This document shows positions 28,733-62,769 of a stretch of 64,000 nucleotides of DNA, piece by piece (within the stretch, counting starts at the first letter, position 1; each line of letters begins with the position of its first letter). A model generated the notes under the pieces. That model saw nothing but the letters and a program-made list of their open reading frames with translations. It was not told the origin of the DNA and did no database searches. The position numbers and the translations under genes are program-made. Location of the stretch: IMG/VR virus record IMGVR_UViG_3300025713_000650, positions 64,001-128,000 of that record; one strand, written 5' to 3'. Source of the DNA: a virus (lineage: Duplodnaviria; Caudoviricetes).

Positions 28733-29935
28733 TCACTCATTAAATGTTTTTTTACTTAAATTATGCATTTTTTCAAAGAATTTATTTTTATATTCACTAA
28801 CATCGTTAATAAATACACTTTGTAAACGAATCAAATATAAATATATATCTCTATCCTTTGTTGCCATTTGTGCTATAAATGTAAAAAACATTACACCTAT
28901 ATCTGAAGGAATATCACATAAAAATAAGGCAATATTTCTTTTTTGTTGATCATTTAATTCTGGTTTTTCTTCTAAATGATTCATTATAGATTCAAAAAGT
29001 CTATTTAAACTAAGATTATCTAATTTATTTATTATTGATTTATTGGATTCAAAATTATTTATGATTTCTTCATAATTTATTTTATTACTAGAATCCTTTA
29101 CAAAATCAATAAAAATTCTAGACAATGACATATTTAATAATCCTGGAAAAATTATATTAAGATTTTTTAAATTACTTTCAATACCACCATTCATTTCATA
29201 TCCCCATAAAATATCTGAACATTTCTCCCAAGATGCTGGATTTGAATATACTCTTCCTTTTCTTTGGGATTCAAAATCATATAAAAATTTGGGGTTATGT
29301 TTAATAAAATCAATTACAAACTTATGAAACTTTTGATTTTCAGCATATTTTAAAAATGTATCAACTGATAAATCACAATAAATATGAACACTTCTTCTTA
29401 AACCAGCGGCATCTTCCAATGTATTCATTGAATATTCTTGATCATCTGGATTATCTAATGTGATAATAAACCAACCTTTTGGAAAATCATGTGTATGTAA
29501 TCTATGTTCATTTTGAATTTGCCACATTAATTGCTGTAAATCATGATCACCTCTACCCATTTCATCAATAACAAATAAACCAAAGGAATTTTCATCTTTT
29601 GGAATAAAATCACTAAATAACATACTAAATTGTTTATTTTCTGGATCTGGAAAAGGACATAACATATCATCTCTTCTTAGGACAGAACTATTTAATTTAA
29701 CAATATCAAATTTAATATTTAATTCTTTTGATAATTCTTCAGCTATTTGAAAACATGATTGTGTTTTACCTATTCCGGCGGGACCGATAATGTGAAAATT
29801 ATTTTTACCTATATATTTTCCATTATTCCAACATTTTATTACATTTTTAATATTATTTTTTATAATTGTTTTAAGATGTTCAATATTTGAACTAGCTATA
29901 TTTAGTTTATCAACATATGCAATTTCTTTACTCAT
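28733..29935 (-). CDS. MoxR-like AAA+ ATPase (partner of the vWA protein)
   Basis: GPAGIGKT, IDEMGR, NP, RR, PASWE; adjacent to the vWA gene. Confidence 0.85.
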   Translation of the reverse strand: MSKEIAYVDKLNIASSNIEHLKTIIKNNIKNVIKCWNNGKYIGKNNFHIIGPAGIGKTQSCFQIAEELSKELNIKFDIVKLNSSVLRRDDMLCPFPDPENKQFSMLFSDFIPKDENSFGLFVIDEMGRGDHDLQQLMWQIQNEHRLHTHDFPKGWFIITLDNPDDQEYSMNTLEDAAGLRRSVHIYCDLSVDTFLKYAENQKFHKFVIDFIKHNPKFLYDFESQRKGRVYSNPASWEKCSDILWGYEMNGGIESNLKNLNIIFPGLLNMSLSRIFIDFVKDSSNKINYEEIINNFESNKSIINKLDNLSLNRLFESIMNHLEEKPELNDQQKRNIALFLCDIPSDIGVMFFTFIAQMATKDRDIYLYLIRLQSVFINDVSEYKNKFFEKMHNLSKKTFNE

Positions 29936-29969
29936 TCACTATTCTCCTATTCACACATTTTTCTCGAAA

Positions 29970-30014
29970 AAAATCCGGGTTGGATAAAAATATAATTCAT
30001 CCAACCCGGATTTT
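29970..30014 (-). terminator. Strong intrinsic terminator
   Basis: 16-bp perfect inverted repeat aaaatccgggttggat / atccaacccggatttt followed by a U-tract on the minus strand. Confidence 0.85.
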
Positions 30015-30125
30015 AACTTATTTCTTCTTGGTGAACTGTCTCCCGCTTTGAGAAGCGGGAGCTTCCTAGTCAATATCTCTACTGAGACAAGTTTACCTAG
30101 GCTTACAAGGCCGTTCCGGCCTCTT
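30015..30125 (-). ncRNA. Orphan IS200/IS605 right end / TnpB omega-RNA-like scaffold with 16-nt guide-position segment
   Basis: Minus strand: GGCCGGAACGGCC hairpin...GAAGCTCCCGCTTCTCAAAGCGGGAGACAGTTCAC. Same architecture as the tnpB right end at 61306-61415; no tnpB ORF adjacent. Confidence 0.65.
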
Positions 30126-30148
30126 TTAATCTTTTTACAGAGCTAAAC

Positions 30149-31024
30149 TTAAAAAACAATATCATCTAAAGAAAATGATTCACCTGTCACTTCTTCCATT
30201 GTTTTTTCTTCTTCTTTTGGTTTATTATCTTCGAATTTAATTTGATCTGTTGCTTCTTGTTCTTTTCCTAAAGTTTGAGACCAATCAAATTTTTCATTAA
30301 ATTGTGGTAAAATTTCTTTTGCCTTTTTGACAATTTGTTTCACATAATCATCTGGTATTTGTATTCCCATTGCAAGATCAAAGACTGATTTATCACCATA
30401 TCTTGAAGGTTTCCAACCGATTGTAATCTTTGTTACAAATCTCTTATGATTAATAATACTCTTTTCTAACTTCATTGTTTCTTCTGTTGATGGTAAAATA
30501 AGAGGTTCGAGATCCAATCTAAATAATGATGTTAAATATTCGGAAATATTAGAATACTTAATTCCCTTTCCTCTAATAAATCCAAATACAGCTTTATTAT
30601 TTTCATCTATTAATGGTTTACCATTTGGAGAACAAATCATACCCGAAACTATAAGATTGCTTTTACAATCTTTACAAAATGGAGATGCTGCTCTTTCTGC
30701 TGAATTTCTACCACAAATATTACCACTTGTACCTTTCCAAACCTTACCTGTTTTATAACTAAAACACCCTACTCTATCTTGACCATTTTCTTTAACTGTT
30801 TTAACTAGAACTTCTTTAATGTGAGTAATAATCATATTAACTTCATCAAGATTATATTTAAATCCTCTTATTTGAAGTTTATTTGCTTCTTCGGAAACTC
30901 CAATATGATTTGTTCTTGTCTTGCCTGCAATGTAAATTGAATGGAAAAACTCATCTTCAGGCTTTTTTGTTTCTTTTACGGAGAACCCAGTATTACTTAA
31001 ATCAGAAAAATCTTCATACTTCAT
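30149..31024 (-). CDS. Putative single-stranded DNA-binding protein
   Basis: Cys cluster (C..C...CKDC) and acidic tail ending SLDDIVF, like the SSB DDIPF tail; replication context. Confidence 0.55.
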   Translation of the reverse strand: MKYEDFSDLSNTGFSVKETKKPEDEFFHSIYIAGKTRTNHIGVSEEANKLQIRGFKYNLDEVNMIITHIKEVLVKTVKENGQDRVGCFSYKTGKVWKGTSGNICGRNSAERAASPFCKDCKSNLIVSGMICSPNGKPLIDENNKAVFGFIRGKGIKYSNISEYLTSLFRLDLEPLILPSTEETMKLEKSIINHKRFVTKITIGWKPSRYGDKSVFDLAMGIQIPDDYVKQIVKKAKEILPQFNEKFDWSQTLGKEQEATDQIKFEDNKPKEEEKTMEEVTGESFSLDDIVF

Positions 31025-31697: not shown

Positions 31698-31775
31698 TTA
31701 AAAAAATAAAAATTTTTCCTATAGACAAAACTTCTTAATTTTCACAAAAACACCTCCCTTGTATTTATTTTTCAT

Positions 31776-31792
31776 TAATTAATATATATAGA
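31776..31792 (-). promoter_or_regulatory. Conserved phage promoter-like motif TCTATATATATTAATTA (copy 3)
   Basis: Exact repeat; downstream TGAAAAATAAA...AAGGGAGGTG is shared with copy 1. Confidence 0.75.
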
Positions 31793-32050: not shown

Positions 32051-32643
32051 AATTTCTCTCCCTTCTTAATAATTTCTTCAATAATTAATGTTTTATTTTT
32101 TTGCATGTTTTTAAAACAAAAATCAATAATATTTTCTTTATTGTTTTCTTGAAGAAATTTTCTCTGAAAATAATTATTATATTTATATTTTTCAAAAATA
32201 AATATTTCAATTTTATTCCATATATTTAAAAAAAATTCTTTAACAAATTTAGTTTTAAAATCAATATTTAAATTAATTAAAAGATCAGTAAAAAATTCTA
32301 CATTATCATATTCTAACCATTCTAAAAATTGTAAAAGTTTATCAAAATCTGATTCAGATGTACAATCAATCAAATTAACAAAATTAAAATTATAAACTTC
32401 TTGAACTTTTTGAATTATCTTTCTACTTAATTCTAATTTATCTTCTAATTTATATTGTTTTATAAATATAAAACAATTTGAATAAACTTCCTTAAAGTTC
32501 TCTTTGCCTATACTATCCAATAAATTATTATTATCATATTCATTACTAGACATTTCAACTAAATTTTTATCATCATCTTCTTCAATTTCTAATGTTGGAG
32601 ATGATTGTTTTATTAATGTTTTAATATTTTCTTCACCTATCAT
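32047..32643 (-). CDS. Hypothetical protein
   Basis: 198-aa ORF translationally coupled (ATGA) to the beta-like gene. Confidence 0.7.
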   Translation of the reverse strand: MIGEENIKTLIKQSSPTLEIEEDDDKNLVEMSSNEYDNNNLLDSIGKENFKEVYSNCFIFIKQYKLEDKLELSRKIIQKVQEVYNFNFVNLIDCTSESDFDKLLQFLEWLEYDNVEFFTDLLINLNIDFKTKFVKEFFLNIWNKIEIFIFEKYKYNNYFQRKFLQENNKENIIDFCFKNMQKNKTLIIEEIIKKGEKL

Positions 32644-35600
32644 AATAATTTCCTTTCATCTAACATTAGAGCATTAAAATATGCATCTAATTGTTCCCTA
32701 GCTAAAGATTGTTTTGTATATTTAAATGATGTATTCCCTTGTTGTATAATTTCAGATATCATTTCATTTTGAGATGATCTATCATCAGATAAAGGACCCA
32801 TCATTTCAGATAATAAATGTACTGCATTATAAGATAATGTTGCTATAGTATCGGCCTCTCCAAACCTTTGACCACCTTCTAATTTTTTACCACCAGTGGG
32901 TTGTTCTAATCTTGTTAATTTACCCGTTGATCTTGCATGAATTTTTAATTCAGCAATATGTTCCAACTTACTAATATAAGAATATCCCACCGGAACTTTA
33001 TGGTGTGTTTTTATATTGTATTCTGGAAGATATAAATTATATCCAGATTGTAAATTTAAAACTTTCATTACAGATTTTATCTGATTTAAATTTGGTGATT
33101 GAAAAGGAATAAAAACAAGAGGGAAAAATCCTCTTTCAACAATAGATTTAATAAATATTTTATATTGATTATCACTTAGATTTGAAATATTATTAATAAA
33201 TCTTGTAGAAAATTCTTTATTTTTACTATTGTCAAATAATGTCAATACTTTTTTCAATAAAGAAATAACATTAGTTCTAGAATTATTTTTAGTAATTCTT
33301 AAAGCTAAATCCTTAGATATTAATCCTGAATATAATTCAAATAACTGACCAATGTTCATTCTTCCAATAATACCAACGGGATTAAGTACAATATCTAATT
33401 TTTCTCCCCATGGTGTTCTTGGCATATTTTCGTCTTTTTCAACTAAAGAAATAATACCTTTATTTCCATATCTACCTGTTAATTTATCACCTAAACCTAT
33501 TTTAAATTCCTGTTGAACTTTAAATTTAATCAAGATACCTTTAATTAATTTACCTTTTACATAAAATTTATCTTTTGGTAATAATCCATATCTTTCTCTT
33601 GTTCGATCAATCAAATATTTAATTTTTGGAAATTTATTATCTCCAATATTAGTATATATTTCAATATCTACAACAACACCACCGGGACTCTTCTTTATTA
33701 TATCTTGTCCTATTCTACTTATAGTTTCATCTTCTTCATAACCTAATAATTCTTCAATTGTACCTACTGTTTTTTTTATTAAAGGTTCTCCTTTTTTTGT
33801 ACTTGAACCAATGTCAATTATTTCTAAAATTCTATCTTTTTCCTCAACTAAAACTTCTTCAATAATAGCATGTAAAGATGTTAATTTATCTTCCTTTATT
33901 AATTTTTCGTTTATAACAATACCATCTTCAAAATTATATCCTTTATATGGCATATATCCAATAAGAAAAGATCTACCTAAACAAAGACTTCCATCCTTAA
34001 TACCACTACCTTCTGCTAATATTTGACCTTTTTGTACAACCTGATTAGTTTTTACAACCGGTATAAATACGCTTAATGTGTCTCTTCCAAATCCAGATTT
34101 TAAATGAATTGGTTTAATATCTATATTGTGTTTTTTTCCTTTTTCATCAGAAACTAAAATAAAATCTCGATTAATCTCTAAAATTCTACATTTAAATGGA
34201 GCTTTTTTAATAAAACTATTAGATAAATATTCAGAAACAATAGATTCATAACCAGATAAAACAATAGGTGGTTCTGGATTTTTTAGTGGTAAAGCCTGTT
34301 TCATCTGTGCACAAGACATCATTATCCTAGCACCATCATTATTTTCAACAAATGGAATCATAGAAGAAGATACTGATAAAATTCCAGATCCCTCAGTATC
34401 ACTTATTTTTTTATCTTTAAATAATCCTCTTGCACTTGTTATAAGAGCATTTACAGCTAATTGTTGATTTACACCTATATTTTCACCTTCGGGTGTATCA
34501 ATTGGATCAATATTACCATAATAAGAAGGGTGAACATTTCTCATTTCAACTTGAATTGATTCTTTACTTGGTACACCACCTAAATTTTTACCTACGGGTG
34601 TAATTTTAGTTATAGCTGCTAATTCCTCAATTGGATTTGCAAATTCTAATGTTGAGACAATTTCTGAATTAATAAATGCTGATAATGTTGCAGTTGGATT
34701 AATTTCAAATTTTGCTTTTTTATTTCCAGATAAAACTTGTTCTTTATATTTTGTATATTCTGCTAGTATTTGTTTTTGAATTAAATGAATTAAAACCTCA
34801 GAACCTCTTATTCTTTGATTTTTTAAATCATTCCTATCATCAACCTTTCCTTCAATAACCTTCAAAGACATATATTTCATTATTTTATCTAATTCATATG
34901 GTAAATTTTGATTGATTAAAACTTGCTTAACTACAGGATCAACAATATTTTCAAGATTTAATGAGATCATATATGTTGAATGTCGTATCCCTGTTATAAA
35001 GATTATAAGATCATTAAAATATTCATTTTCTCCAAAATTTTTATCTGATTCAAATTCTTCAAATTTAACAGTAAGAAGAGAATTAAATAATTGTTTTTTT
35101 AATTCAGAATTAATATTTGTAAAATATAAATACTTATCTTTATTTATTTGAATTACTTTATCTTGATCTTTTGGATTTTCCTCCGATATATTATATTTAA
35201 GATCAAATAATGTCATTGTTTTATCAAATCCAAAAGTAAACCACATTAATATGATTAAAGGTATTTTGTAATTACCCATAAAAATTCTAAGATATCTTTC
35301 GTTTTTATACTTTAAACTTTCTATATGAAATGCTGAATATGAACTGGTAAATCTTGAATCATATGGTTTTGGAAAACTTATTGGACATAATATTATTTGA
35401 TTAACAAGATATTTTGTTTCACCATTTAATTTAAATGTTCCGGTTTCGGGATTTATTTTAGGAACCTCAATAGAAACAGTATGGTTATTATTAAACATAT
35501 CTTTTAATTCAACTTTAACAACATTTAAATCCGATCTATTTATTTCTCCAGGTCTTTCTTTTTTATCTTCAATTACAATGTCTTGAATTTTAAGCTTAAT

Positions 35601-36770
35601 ATCTTTTTTCTCTAAAGTTTTAAACGAATTTGTTAAATCTTTTTTAAAGTTATAGCTAAAATCAACAATTCTTTTTTGATATAATTGAGATGGATTTTTA
35701 TCGCCTATTTGTTTTTCAATATCCATTGTTTCTATCACTTTATCTGATGATAGTGATTTCGTTTTTTCTTTTACTAATAACTCGTCAACATATTCTTTTT
35801 CAACTTTTTTCAAAACTTTGTTTGTTTTGTTATCTGGTATTGTTTTAGTAACATTTTTTGAAATTTTTAAATTATTTGTATTTTTATATATAACAGACTG
35901 TATTGCTGTCTTTTTAATAATTGGATCATTTTTATCAGCTTTAATTATTTTCTTTGCTAATGTTTTTTCTTTATTTAATAAATCATTTACGCTAGTCTTT
36001 ACCTTTTCTACATTTTTAGATAATAAATCTTTTTTTGTATTATCTATAACTTTTTTTGTAGCATGTTTAATAATTTCTTCATCTTCTCGATCATCAACAT
36101 CAACTCCATCTTCTTCATCTTCTTCATAACTACCTTTATATTTTAAGCTTTTTAAAATTGGAAATATTCTTTCAAAATTTACTTGCTTATTTTTTACTAA
36201 TAATCTATACTTCACACCTTTTTCAGTTATTAATGTTAATAAAAGATGGTCAAAATCAAAATCTTGCTTTTTAAGATCTCTTATAAATAAATAAAATTTT
36301 CTATTTACCCAATTCTTATTAAATGGTTTTGTTAAATCAATACAATACATCAAAACTTTTTCATAATCTGCAAATTGATAAAAAGCATTTTCAACATTTC
36401 TTTTTATCAAAACACCAGATCTTGTTCTATAATTACTTGGTTTATATAATTCATCAATAGTAGAAGTATAGATAGATGTATCATAAAGAAGACTTCTTTT
36501 GGCTGGTGGTTTTTGATTATGTTGAAATGGATATATTTTTAATGATCTGTATGCTGTTTTTAATTTTGTCGTTAGGAATGTAACCGGTATTTTTGTTCTT
36601 GGAATAATAACATTTCTAACATCAATTTTTAAAATATTTAATTTTTCATAACACTCTAAAAGTGTAGTATTTTCAGAGAAAAATACTAAAATATAAGGAT
36701 TTTTCTTAAATAACCATCTAATTGCATTTACTACATGAGTATATTGTCTTAAATTTTTAAATTGTATCAT
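32640..36770 (-). CDS. rpoB: Multisubunit RNA polymerase beta-like subunit (set 2) with long N-terminal extension
   Basis: VHPSYYGNIDPIDTPEGENIG, PFVENNDGARIMM...QMKQA, GYNFEDGI, GDKLTGRYGNKGII, GRMNIGQ, GGQRFGE. Confidence 0.95.
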   Translation of the reverse strand: MIQFKNLRQYTHVVNAIRWLFKKNPYILVFFSENTTLLECYEKLNILKIDVRNVIIPRTKIPVTFLTTKLKTAYRSLKIYPFQHNQKPPAKRSLLYDTSIYTSTIDELYKPSNYRTRSGVLIKRNVENAFYQFADYEKVLMYCIDLTKPFNKNWVNRKFYLFIRDLKKQDFDFDHLLLTLITEKGVKYRLLVKNKQVNFERIFPILKSLKYKGSYEEDEEDGVDVDDREDEEIIKHATKKVIDNTKKDLLSKNVEKVKTSVNDLLNKEKTLAKKIIKADKNDPIIKKTAIQSVIYKNTNNLKISKNVTKTIPDNKTNKVLKKVEKEYVDELLVKEKTKSLSSDKVIETMDIEKQIGDKNPSQLYQKRIVDFSYNFKKDLTNSFKTLEKKDIKLKIQDIVIEDKKERPGEINRSDLNVVKVELKDMFNNNHTVSIEVPKINPETGTFKLNGETKYLVNQIILCPISFPKPYDSRFTSSYSAFHIESLKYKNERYLRIFMGNYKIPLIILMWFTFGFDKTMTLFDLKYNISEENPKDQDKVIQINKDKYLYFTNINSELKKQLFNSLLTVKFEEFESDKNFGENEYFNDLIIFITGIRHSTYMISLNLENIVDPVVKQVLINQNLPYELDKIMKYMSLKVIEGKVDDRNDLKNQRIRGSEVLIHLIQKQILAEYTKYKEQVLSGNKKAKFEINPTATLSAFINSEIVSTLEFANPIEELAAITKITPVGKNLGGVPSKESIQVEMRNVHPSYYGNIDPIDTPEGENIGVNQQLAVNALITSARGLFKDKKISDTEGSGILSVSSSMIPFVENNDGARIMMSCAQMKQALPLKNPEPPIVLSGYESIVSEYLSNSFIKKAPFKCRILEINRDFILVSDEKGKKHNIDIKPIHLKSGFGRDTLSVFIPVVKTNQVVQKGQILAEGSGIKDGSLCLGRSFLIGYMPYKGYNFEDGIVINEKLIKEDKLTSLHAIIEEVLVEEKDRILEIIDIGSSTKKGEPLIKKTVGTIEELLGYEEDETISRIGQDIIKKSPGGVVVDIEIYTNIGDNKFPKIKYLIDRTRERYGLLPKDKFYVKGKLIKGILIKFKVQQEFKIGLGDKLTGRYGNKGIISLVEKDENMPRTPWGEKLDIVLNPVGIIGRMNIGQLFELYSGLISKDLALRITKNNSRTNVISLLKKVLTLFDNSKNKEFSTRFINNISNLSDNQYKIFIKSIVERGFFPLVFIPFQSPNLNQIKSVMKVLNLQSGYNLYLPEYNIKTHHKVPVGYSYISKLEHIAELKIHARSTGKLTRLEQPTGGKKLEGGQRFGEADTIATLSYNAVHLLSEMMGPLSDDRSSQNEMISEIIQQGNTSFKYTKQSLAREQLDAYFNALMLDERKLL

Positions 36771-61305: not shown

Positions 61306-61415
61306 TTGAACCTCTCCACCTTACGTTTCACTTAGAAGGTGGAGATTCTCGTTTCATCAACCTCGTAACCTACTATCTCCACGAGCCTCTTATATTCGGG
61401 TCGTTCCAACCCTAT
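61306..61415 (-). ncRNA. TnpB omega-RNA-like scaffold / element right end
   Basis: GGGTTGGAACGACCC hairpin immediately after the tnpB stop; terminal hairpin ending GTTCAA. Confidence 0.6.
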
Positions 61416-61421
61416 TTTATT

Positions 61422-61646
61422 TTAAGCTGTTAAGCCTAATTCTTTTAATCCTTGATTAAGTATATTTACTGCGGCATTTACATCTCTCTGGTGATTGGCA
61501 TTACACTTTGGACATATCCATTGCCTAACATTTAAGTCTTTAGTATCTGTATTTTTATATCCACATACATTACATGTTTGACTTGATGCATAGAACCTAT
61601 CTATTTTATGATATATCTTATCATGCCATACTGATTTATACTCAAT
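61422..61646 (-). pseudogene. tnpB: tnpB 3' fragment (Zn ribbon plus last RuvC motif); not in the ORF track
   Basis: IEYKSVWHDKIYHKIDRFYASSQTCNVCG...WICPKCNANHQRDVNAAVNILNQGL. Confidence 0.9.
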
Positions 61647-62412
61647 CTATAATAATATATTTTCTATTATCATTTTGAATTTCTCCATTATGTAATTTCT
61701 TTTTAAAAGTATTAAAACAACAATTAAGAGAATTTTTATTAGACTGATAAGCTTCTTTTATAGATTTAAATATTATACTTGTATCAACACATAAAACTTT
61801 TTTACTTAACCTTTCTGCATTTATTTCTTTGTTTTTATTTGATATTTTATTACCTTTCATAGATTGAGAAATTTTATTTTTTATTTCTTGTGTATGTTTA
61901 TGACCTTTATGCGATTCACTTAAATTAGTGATATGTTTTTCAGATAATGTTTTATCCTTATTAAAAGGAGTGTGACCATTTTTAAAACCAAAATTACTAT
62001 TTTTATTTGCTAACATTTTAACAGCTCTTGTTCTTGATAATTCTCTAAAATAATCGTCATTTTTATACTTGTTTTTCAAACCATCACTAATTTTTTGATT
62101 ATATGTGTTATTTTCTTCCTCAGTATACCCCTTTCTAACATTGCCACCATTTCCGCCTTCTGCGATATTATATCCATTTGGCCTAATAGAATTGAAAAAT
62201 TGTATATAATACTTTTCTTTCTCAACCAATTCTTCTTCTGAGTCGCATTTGTATATTGTTTCTTTAGTAAAATTTTCTCTTCCGTATTTTTTATATGCGT
62301 TTTTTAATATTTTACCAGAACCCTAATAATTATTAAAATTATTACCCTGATATTTGCCTATATATATTTTACCATTAATAGTATTTGTTATTTTATATAT
62401 TATCACAATCAT
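61642..62412 (-). pseudogene. GIY-YIG homing endonuclease with NUMOD3-like repeats, interrupted by an in-frame TAG at 62323-62325
   Basis: MIVIIYKITNTINGKIYIGK...NY*GSG...KYGRENF...EKYYI...NGYN; in frame with ORF 61642..62229. Confidence 0.88.
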
Positions 62413-62696
62413 ACACTCCTTAGTGAAATACTGTCAACCTCACGCAACCATTCGTATTGCTTTTTTAAATTGGTTAAATCATTTGCACAAACATTGTAAG
62501 TCATTGACTTTTGTTTTGTTTTATACAATTCAATTCTTTGTGCTAAATAATGATTATGTACAAATCTACAACAGCCGATAGTCTTATTGATTAACTCTGT
62601 TTGTTGTTTGTTTGGGTATATACGATACTTATATGCTTTTAATATAGTTTTCAAGTATTTCACCGCCTCTCTATTATTAATGCACTGTTTTGTCAA
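62409..62696 (-). pseudogene. tnpB: tnpB 5' fragment (HTH_OrfB_IS605); real start probably TTG near 62654
   Basis: LKAYKYRIYPNKQQ...IGCCRFVHNHYL...LKKQYEWLREVDSISL, then truncation. Confidence 0.9.
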
Positions 62697-62769
62697 CAGT
62701 CACCAATTCATCTCCCACTTTCGCTACGCTTAGAAGTGGGAGTGTTCTTGGCGATTAGGATAAATATTT

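Follow-up and report, generated by a model that had tools for sequence, protein, structure and literature searches.

The window, i.e., the whole 64,000-nt stretch of phage DNA that was analysed, carries in its ORF list a 291-aa phage gene on the minus strand (30149..31024), which ends in ...DDIVF and a TAA stop codon. This stop codon forms the last 3 nt of a TTTAA target motif (30149-30153), directly behind which lies a 118-nt insertion (30031..30148, minus strand), defined by the comparison of empty and filled alleles, by a covariance model and by identity to a parent element, and referred to below as the relic. The relic begins with the last 14 nt of a parental tnpB frame (S L A L stop; 30135..30148, minus strand), recognised by comparison with the parent and in the covariance-model alignment, and continues with three hairpins on the same strand. 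Hairpin 1 (30107..30123, minus strand; GAGGCCGG-AAC-GGCCTT, with a GGAAC loop) was predicted by folding and shows compensatory pair changes across the family. Hairpin 2 (30065..30100, minus strand) folds into an outer stem, CTAGG/CTAGG, and an inner stem, TCTC/GAGA, with the conserved internal loops TAAACTTG and TATTGA. Hairpin 3 (30040..30061, minus strand; CTCCCGC...GCGGGAG), found both in the fold and in the family alignment, is similar to the left-end hairpin of the parent IS and is presumed to be the right-end hairpin bound by TnpA. The relic closes with the tail ACAGTTCAC (30031..30039, minus strand), which was identified by homologue comparison and pairing as both the 3′ strand of a pseudoknot and the right-end boundary.

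Behind the tail follow 16 nt at the guide position, CAAGAAGAAATAAGTT (30015..30030, minus strand), which belong to the ancestral 3′UTR and are the first 16 nt of the empty-site target, and then the ancestral intrinsic terminator of the 291-aa gene (29967..30014, minus strand), for which folding predicts a perfect 16-bp stem (30014-29999 paired with 29985-29970), a 13-nt loop and a T-run. The terminator scan missed this large terminator because of its loop-size rule. Next comes a 400-aa ATPase gene (phrog_1297; 28733..29935, minus strand), whose start is preceded by an RBS. The relic has the same orientation as the surrounding operon (sense). The 191-nt region folds with -69.9 kcal/mol (z = -7.2 vs. 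shuffles), and GC content climbs to 0.43-0.44 there vs. a background of ~0.27. No Rfam match reached the gathering score in the window, with permissive E-values giving chance-level hits only; ARAGORN returned nothing relevant in the region, and a sigma-70 promoter scan found promoter-like sites no more numerous than in shuffles.

This layout agrees in most respects with an earlier note on the same DNA, which had described a structured GC-rich segment of about 95 nt behind an SSB-like gene, exactly 16 nt (30030-30015) and the perfect 16-bp terminator stem, with no tnpB or left end adjacent. The hairpins, the tail and the 16-nt spacing are present as described, but the IS-derived part measures 118 nt rather than ~95. 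The insert starts at the last 14 nt of tnpB and the left-end hairpin is absent, as the note had said of the flanks. The SSB-like identity of the upstream gene was not confirmed, i.e., searches of the 291-aa gene against Pfam and PHROG gave no family, and the Atlas offered only Pam3_Gp34/DUF5895 leads. In relatives, homologues of the 291-aa gene are followed by the same ATPase gene, a synteny that is kept in distant relatives; a relative of the ATPase was sought in IMG/VR and none was found there.

A blastn search against 50,697 phage records matched a single place, in Clostridium phage c-st, located 15 nt downstream of the OrfB/TnpB gene CST045, with 78% identity and compensatory changes in all three hairpins. 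A 22-nt pattern taken from hairpin 2 and used to search Clostridium genomes and viral contigs retrieved ~15 further copies, each directly after a tnpB 3′ end. These right ends all stop at AGTTCAC and their sequences diverge beyond it, which defines the right-end boundary. In this unbiased pattern search, all 12 of the bacterial right ends with enough upstream sequence keep tnpB sequence, and 80 more loci in Clostridia and Bacilli with this architecture came from a TnpB-based search. The covariance model CM R1 was built from 31 aligned tnpB-linked right ends, with the orphan left out. Its consensus structure contains 27 predicted pairs, 12 of which show double-sided compensatory changes, five of these 12 falling in hairpin 2. 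The window element scored 103.5 bits with CM R1 (E ~1e-21), a result that bears out the earlier identification of a TnpB omegaRNA-type right end. Judged by these sequence comparisons, the likeness to a tnpB right end is true homology, more than a shared layout. It is near certain that the segment is the solo right-end relic of an ISDra2-like, tnpB-only IS605-family element, located at a TTTAA that overlaps the stop codon.

Of tnpB, only 14 nt are contained in the insert, and the left end and the tnpB or tnpA gene of a complete IS605-family element are missing from it. No copy of the left-end hairpin TCTCCCACC..GGTGGGAGA was found in the insert, the right-end hairpin being its sole TnpA-type hairpin. 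The first nucleotides of the insert were also considered as a left-end tip, which was ruled out since they match the last tnpB codons and neither CCTTAATG nor CTTTCTTG. An IStron or group I intron origin was ruled out as well, the family element being only ~1.3-1.35 kb long with a left end of ~120-150 nt.

The only other CM R1 match in the window, at 61306-61451 (27.1 bits, E 0.0016), is the right end to which the earlier note had compared the segment, and the two scores (103.5 vs. 27 bits) agree with its statement that the layout is alike and the sequence different, as for a distant relative. This right end (61306..61451, minus strand), supported by CM R1 and by its fold, belongs to another, broken and distantly related tnpB element (61306-62762, minus strand), in which ~70 codons of a tnpB 3′ end, followed by the right end, come after an ORF with a NUMOD3 motif. 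This 195-aa ORF (61642-62229, minus strand; GIY-YIG-type homing-endonuclease-like) sits where the TnpB core would be expected, and a 95-aa N-terminal tnpB fragment (62409-62696, minus strand) was recognised from the ORF list and its HTH_OrfB_IS605 domain match. An intact cognate tnpB was looked for in the 64-kb window and none was found, the second CM match belonging to this broken, distant tnpB.

Public assemblies contain this phage in abundance, and metagenome contigs encoding a 100%-identical ATPase were compared and fell into two allele classes. The empty alleles (L108, L110, L111 and L113, also L028) read ...GTTTTTTAA/CAAGAAGAAATAAGTTAAAATCCGGG..., with the slash at the insertion point, i.e., TTTAA/CAAGAAGAAATAAGTT and then the terminator. 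In the filled alleles (the window, L109/L114, L112/L115 and L116-119), TTTAA and CAAG are separated by a 118-nt insert that is the same in all of them, with the junctions TTTAA/insert...GTTCAC/CAAG and no target-site duplication. At the level of sequence, the insertion site and its boundaries are shown by this comparison. In addition, TTTAA was found directly 5′ of the left end in 4 independent bacterial copies of the family and in all phage copies (L007, L008, L016, L017, L127, L152, L156).

The terminator is present without the insert in L108, L110 and L113, and also in L111, where a single base is substituted in the 3′ half of its stem. In L027, whose 291-aa protein is 82% identical, the stop codon is followed by GAAGAAATAA... 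and by the terminator hairpin in diverged form. Relatives at ~45% identity have short plain spacers, and distant relatives have spacers of ~20-75 nt without comparable structure. Since the 16-mer and the terminator occur both in the empty alleles and in L027, both are ancestral 3′UTR. The arrangement of 16 nt and then a terminator predates the insertion, its spacing being, on the evidence of these alleles, a coincidence of the ancestral UTR. The notion of a purpose-built guide cassette is not supported, given the ancestral 16-mer and terminator and the loss of the 5′ pseudoknot strand described below. The earlier note had itself named a 16-mer that is ancestral 3′UTR in insert-free relatives as the finding that would speak against it, and this is what the locus comparison found; its fallback reading, an inert IS scar, is better supported than the cassette.

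Over ~±2.6 kb, no difference was seen among the filled alleles that reach across the flanks (the window, L109 and L112), and filled and empty alleles are separated by 5 linked SNPs within 500 nt left of the insert, with the filled ones forming one haplotype. A single filled haplotype fits one event passed on by descent, and co-conversion during homing would look alike. The assembly of four Logan contigs, which come from different samples, breaks off after 49 nt of the window-type insert, probably through a k = 31 graph effect of another copy that shares the right end from ~position 20.

An exact search with 28 nt and subsequent protein look-ups led to the full element, which measures 1,295 nt and consists, in this order, of TTTAA/CTTTCTTGCTGAGAAT, the left-end hairpin TCTCCCACC..GGTGGGAGA, a 356-aa tnpB and a 104-nt right end. 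It is preceded by an SLT-ligase-67-95 gene block and followed by a tRNA array in L133, L135-137, L147 and L149; in a related phage, it comes after an SLT gene (L152-155). The copies of L152-155 are identical to the window insert at 118 of 118 positions (the last 14 nt of tnpB plus the 104-nt right end), and the other full copies (L133, L135, L136 and L137) are 1 nt different from it. At the 3′ end of tnpB the parent reads ...AAC CTG TTA A/GT TTA GCT CTG TAA..., or ...aacctgTTAA/GTTTAGCTCTGTAA... in L127, L133 and L152, so that the relic starts directly after an internal GTTAA. The parental TnpB matches ISDra2 TnpB (8EXA/8H1J) with an E-value of 1.7e-95 and keeps the catalytic D/E/D residues. 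In similar samples, an autonomous IS605 (L156-L162) was found that encodes a 131-aa Y1 TnpA together with a 356-aa TnpB of the same 90% cluster. It shares a near-identical left end with the phage IS, has a different right end and adjoins a PIN/PhoH gene; it is a candidate source of the transposase moving the phage copies.

A cognate TnpB, which had been proposed to be encoded elsewhere, is encoded intact in sibling phage genomes, and relic and TnpB circulate in the same phage population; the window has none, and for the 127-kb JGI contig with the same filled allele (L109/L114) the ligase locus, i.e., the locus of the parent, is IS-free (L142). A search for the TAM followed by the 16-mer gave no match in viral_contigs and a single chance match, in Aquimarina, while the window itself has no more near matches than chance would give, leaving no host or other target of the kind the earlier note had suggested looking for. 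The sole sensible target of this guide with its TAM would be the empty allele.

Several further observations concern the full copies. The IS at the ligase/tRNA locus is polymorphic, with L133/L135/L147/L149 bearing it and L142-L146 being IS-free, and the IS-free genomes have an intact 79-aa ORF there. In the IS-bearing form, ~205 nt are gone between two TTTAA motifs beside the left end, as well as a 23-nt stretch further on, and L150 carries a truncated 324-aa tnpB. A full-length IS at the portal site, as it appears in one contig (L127 = L134 = L148, ERZ27247346 k141_1939889), was discounted, the right flank of the IS being different in four other contigs. The left flank of L127 matches the ligase locus and its right side is the portal-gene flank, so this contig arose either by recombination between the IS right end and the portal-site relic or as a chimera, joined during assembly at the right end that both have in common.

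The completeness of the scaffold was judged against ISDra2, whose omegaRNA has a pseudoknot at -6..-2 in which the tail positions -5..-3 (UUC of GUUCAC) pair with -103..-105 (PMC10097598) and for which a 116-nt scaffold is sufficient (PMC13639567). The pseudoknot element was described by Nakagawa et al. as conserved across all Cas12-type guide RNAs. In the present family, the tail positions -9..-3 pair with the N-L-L codons of tnpB, 17-24 nt upstream of the stop codon. The best pairing register is the same in all 43 distinct sequences, 36 of which form 6/6 pairs, and on alignment A4 the helix has standard pairs in 88.6% of cells vs. 8-45% for slid partners. Double-sided compensatory changes were observed in L032 (C-G to U-A) and in the phage subfamily (A-U to G-C and C-G to U-A). 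Supported by this covariation, the predicted pseudoknot of the family is homologous to that of ISDra2.

The 5′ pseudoknot strand of the parent, GAACCTGT, lies 3 nt upstream of the relic breakpoint and is gone from the relic. The equivalent position is filled by TTGTTTTT from the 291-aa gene, which disrupts the three core pairs, the counterparts of -5..-3 with -103..-105 in ISDra2. The scaffold stems 3′ of this strand, i.e., all three hairpins, are retained and base-paired, and RNAalifold, applied to the final 130 nt of tnpB, gave no additional conserved helix within the coding sequence. A GAAU located ~34 nt upstream in the 291-aa gene could in principle provide a weak substitute pairing. The relic is not a complete omegaRNA; as to function, we infer from the missing 5′ pseudoknot strand, together with the absence of an intact cognate TnpB from the window, that a working guide RNA is most likely not made.

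The window relic is not the only right end in this phage population that stands without tnpB. A 94-nt relic lies upstream of a T4-type portal gene, TTTAA/AGAGGCC...GTTCAC/CCTTC (L122, L129 and L132), and is identical to the matching 94 nt of the window relic. Its insertion point, TTTAA/CCTTCAAT, has a Gly-rich gene on one side and a terminator on the other, and this relic is polymorphic too, with empty alleles in L125, L126, L128, L130 and L131. A third tnpB-less copy with a different flank is found in L123. A relic of a diverged subfamily (~80% identity; L120 586-708, L139 1-67) retains ~13 nt of the tnpB 3′ end and is positioned after a terminator and before a 236-aa gene; an empty site for it was sought and none was found. 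In the tRNA/DUF5675 region of the same phage, a degraded remnant scoring 26 bits (L142 8667-8759, minus strand, also in L143, L145 and L146) is recognisable by its last hairpin and GTAGTTCAC. In the two relics whose breakpoints were mapped, the left breakpoint lies exactly at the TAM and the internal breakpoint just after GTTAA or ATTAAA. This pattern, together with the ~205-nt loss at the ligase locus, suggests either TnpA action on TAM-like pseudo-sites or deletion at TTAA microhomology.

We consider it probable, on the evidence as a whole, that the segment is an inert solo right-end relic of an ISDra2-like, tnpB-only element of the IS200/IS605 family. Most likely, a copy of the IS, intact elsewhere in sibling phages, would have inserted 3′ of TTTAA by TnpA peel-and-paste, and the left end with nearly all of tnpB would then have been deleted, from the junction of TTTAA with the left end to the internal GTTAA, either by TnpA acting on a TAM-like pseudo-site or through TTAA microhomology; this order of events and this mechanism are what we infer from the junctions. 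The remaining 118 nt would be passively transcribed in the 3′UTR, upstream of the ancestral terminator. With no left-end hairpin, the relic would not be movable by TnpA, and the insert would in effect serve as a neutral marker of lineages, polymorphic among these phages. Several findings count against inertness: all three hairpins and the tail are intact in the relic and match those of an apparently active parent base for base; a complete scaffold would need only a few nt more; a cognate TnpB is encoded in co-circulating siblings, among which the natural target, the empty allele, is common; and right ends without tnpB recur at several loci (L122/L129/L132, L120/L139, L123), more than random decay predicts. 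The relic is too young for sequence conservation to speak for or against selection. Some of these findings would suit a trans-acting, non-autonomous homing guide, which would be released from the 3′UTR and loaded by the TnpB of a sibling phage with the full IS or of the host, and would cut the empty allele TTTAA-CAAGAAGAAATAAGTT of co-infecting siblings, with the outcome that the insert is copied by recombinational repair or a competitor is excluded. This alternative, which we regard as unlikely, draws on scaffold hairpins that are the same as in the parent, on the sense orientation within the operon, on a TnpB in the same population that is predicted to be catalytically intact (D/E/D) and on the frequency of empty alleles. 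It also draws on accepted concepts, i.e., PATE omegaRNAs used in trans (10.1101/2023.03.14.532601) and transposon homing between co-infecting phages (PMC13565253), and on the processing of omegaRNA by TnpB from longer transcripts (PMC10278001). However, the 5′ pseudoknot strand has been deleted with no replacement at the equivalent position, the window has no intact cognate tnpB and the sibling filled contig no parent IS, all filled alleles lie on one haplotype, the guide runs at its 3′ end straight into the terminator hairpin, and it was not chosen but is just the ancestral flank. In its broader form, this idea would make right-end-only omegaRNA modules working guide-only homing elements, loaded by sibling TnpB despite the missing pseudoknot strand and cutting empty alleles of co-infecting genomes, by which they would drive their own spread or shut out competitors; such a generalisation would explain why right ends without tnpB recur at several loci, and we hold it to be quite unlikely.

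A full IS may also never have been present at this locus. In that case, a mobile mini-element, i.e., a module of ~94-118 nt, would have been excised by TnpA, from an internal TTAA pseudo-site as far as the cleavage site of the right end, and pasted 3′ of a new TTTAA. tnpB-less modules indeed exist at at least two further loci, the portal-site copy has a left boundary flush with TTTAA and a known empty site, and in the parent the two mapped internal starts come after GTTAA and ATTAAA. The ~23 contigs read at the window locus include no full-length copy, and the ~24 at the portal locus no trustworthy one, L127 being a suspected chimera, and an autonomous tnpA+tnpB relative with the same left end occurs in the same kind of samples. 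However, in the mechanism of IS608/ISDra2, excision and target recognition need the left-end hairpin and the left-end DNA guide. The module has neither, the copy lengths differ (118 vs. 94 nt), and the 12 bacterial right ends considered above (12/12) keep their tnpB sequence, and the mini-element thus seems improbable to us. Co-option of the insert as a cis-acting 3′UTR RNA, e.g., one that stabilises the mRNA, directs RNase processing or acts as an attenuator ahead of the ATPase gene that follows the 291-aa gene, would account for a very stable fold (z = -7.2) between a stop codon and a terminator inside an operon. It is highly improbable, given that insert-free siblings are common and otherwise near-identical, that the terminator is already there in the empty allele, that the ~20-75-nt spacers of distant relatives have no such structure and that the insert does not differ from a transposon end and shows no trace of adaptation.

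The inert relic can be placed among known systems by what it shares with them. With the ISDra2-type TnpB/omegaRNA elements (IS1341-like, tnpB-only) it has in common a homologous right end, the GTTCAC tail, an insertion 3′ of a 5-nt TAM (TTTAA) without target duplication and a guide position that is the flank of the right end; unlike these elements, it has no tnpB, left end or 5′ pseudoknot strand, and is a fragment rather than an element. PATEs are gene-less IS200/IS605 derivatives that keep the left and right ends and often an omegaRNA (Meers et al., 10.1101/2023.03.14.532601). The relic resembles them in being tnpB-less, in carrying omegaRNA scaffold sequence and in that it would need a TnpB in trans, but it has the right end only, whereas PATEs have both palindromic ends and can be mobilised by TnpA. 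It is also similar to solo IS ends and solo LTRs, being one terminal piece at the original site, polymorphic and probably neutral. In contrast to remnants of the solo-LTR type, it did not arise from terminal-repeat recombination, and its left breakpoint is flush with the TAM and its internal one after a TAM-like TTAA. Filled and empty alleles coexist as they do in the homing of free-standing endonuclease genes between co-infecting T4-like phages or in 'non-restorative transposon homing' (PMC13565253), a setting where an endonuclease would cut the empty allele and where the relic could be of consequence. Unlike in these cases, no endonuclease is encoded at or near the relic locus, and no evidence for biased inheritance of the insert was found among the filled and empty alleles compared.

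The relic itself is ordinary, i.e., an ISDra2-like TnpB transposon invading a large phage and decaying there. The data are nevertheless unusually clean, in that public metagenomes of one phage population show a single element in its empty, filled, full-length and truncated states. For work on TnpB biology in phages, it is useful that this IS subfamily now has a defined TAM (TTTAA) and a right end with an exact boundary, and that the ISDra2-type pseudoknot strand is placed inside the last tnpB codons. The losses of left end and tnpB, flush with the TAM and at an internal TTAA, hint at TnpA-linked partial excision. Should such relics prove active in trans, they would represent selfish elements made of a guide alone, a new lifestyle; since trans-acting omegaRNAs of PATEs and transposon homing in phages have already been described, even this would be a variant of known biology.

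Two observations outside the relic concern the phage that carries it. The window (31737-31792) and L122 (728-780) have in common a ~55-nt intergenic stretch with 82% identity, which supports the view that the window and the portal-locus contigs come from the same or closely related phages. A 1,376-aa ORF of the window (32640-36770, minus strand) has a match in the sibling contigs that carries RNA polymerase Rpb2-type domains, and genes for an RNA ligase and a DUF2201 metallopeptidase/VWA protein lie nearby. These findings, along with the T4-type portal, the sheath and the tRNA array of the siblings, point to a large phage (~130-150 kb) with its own RNA polymerase.
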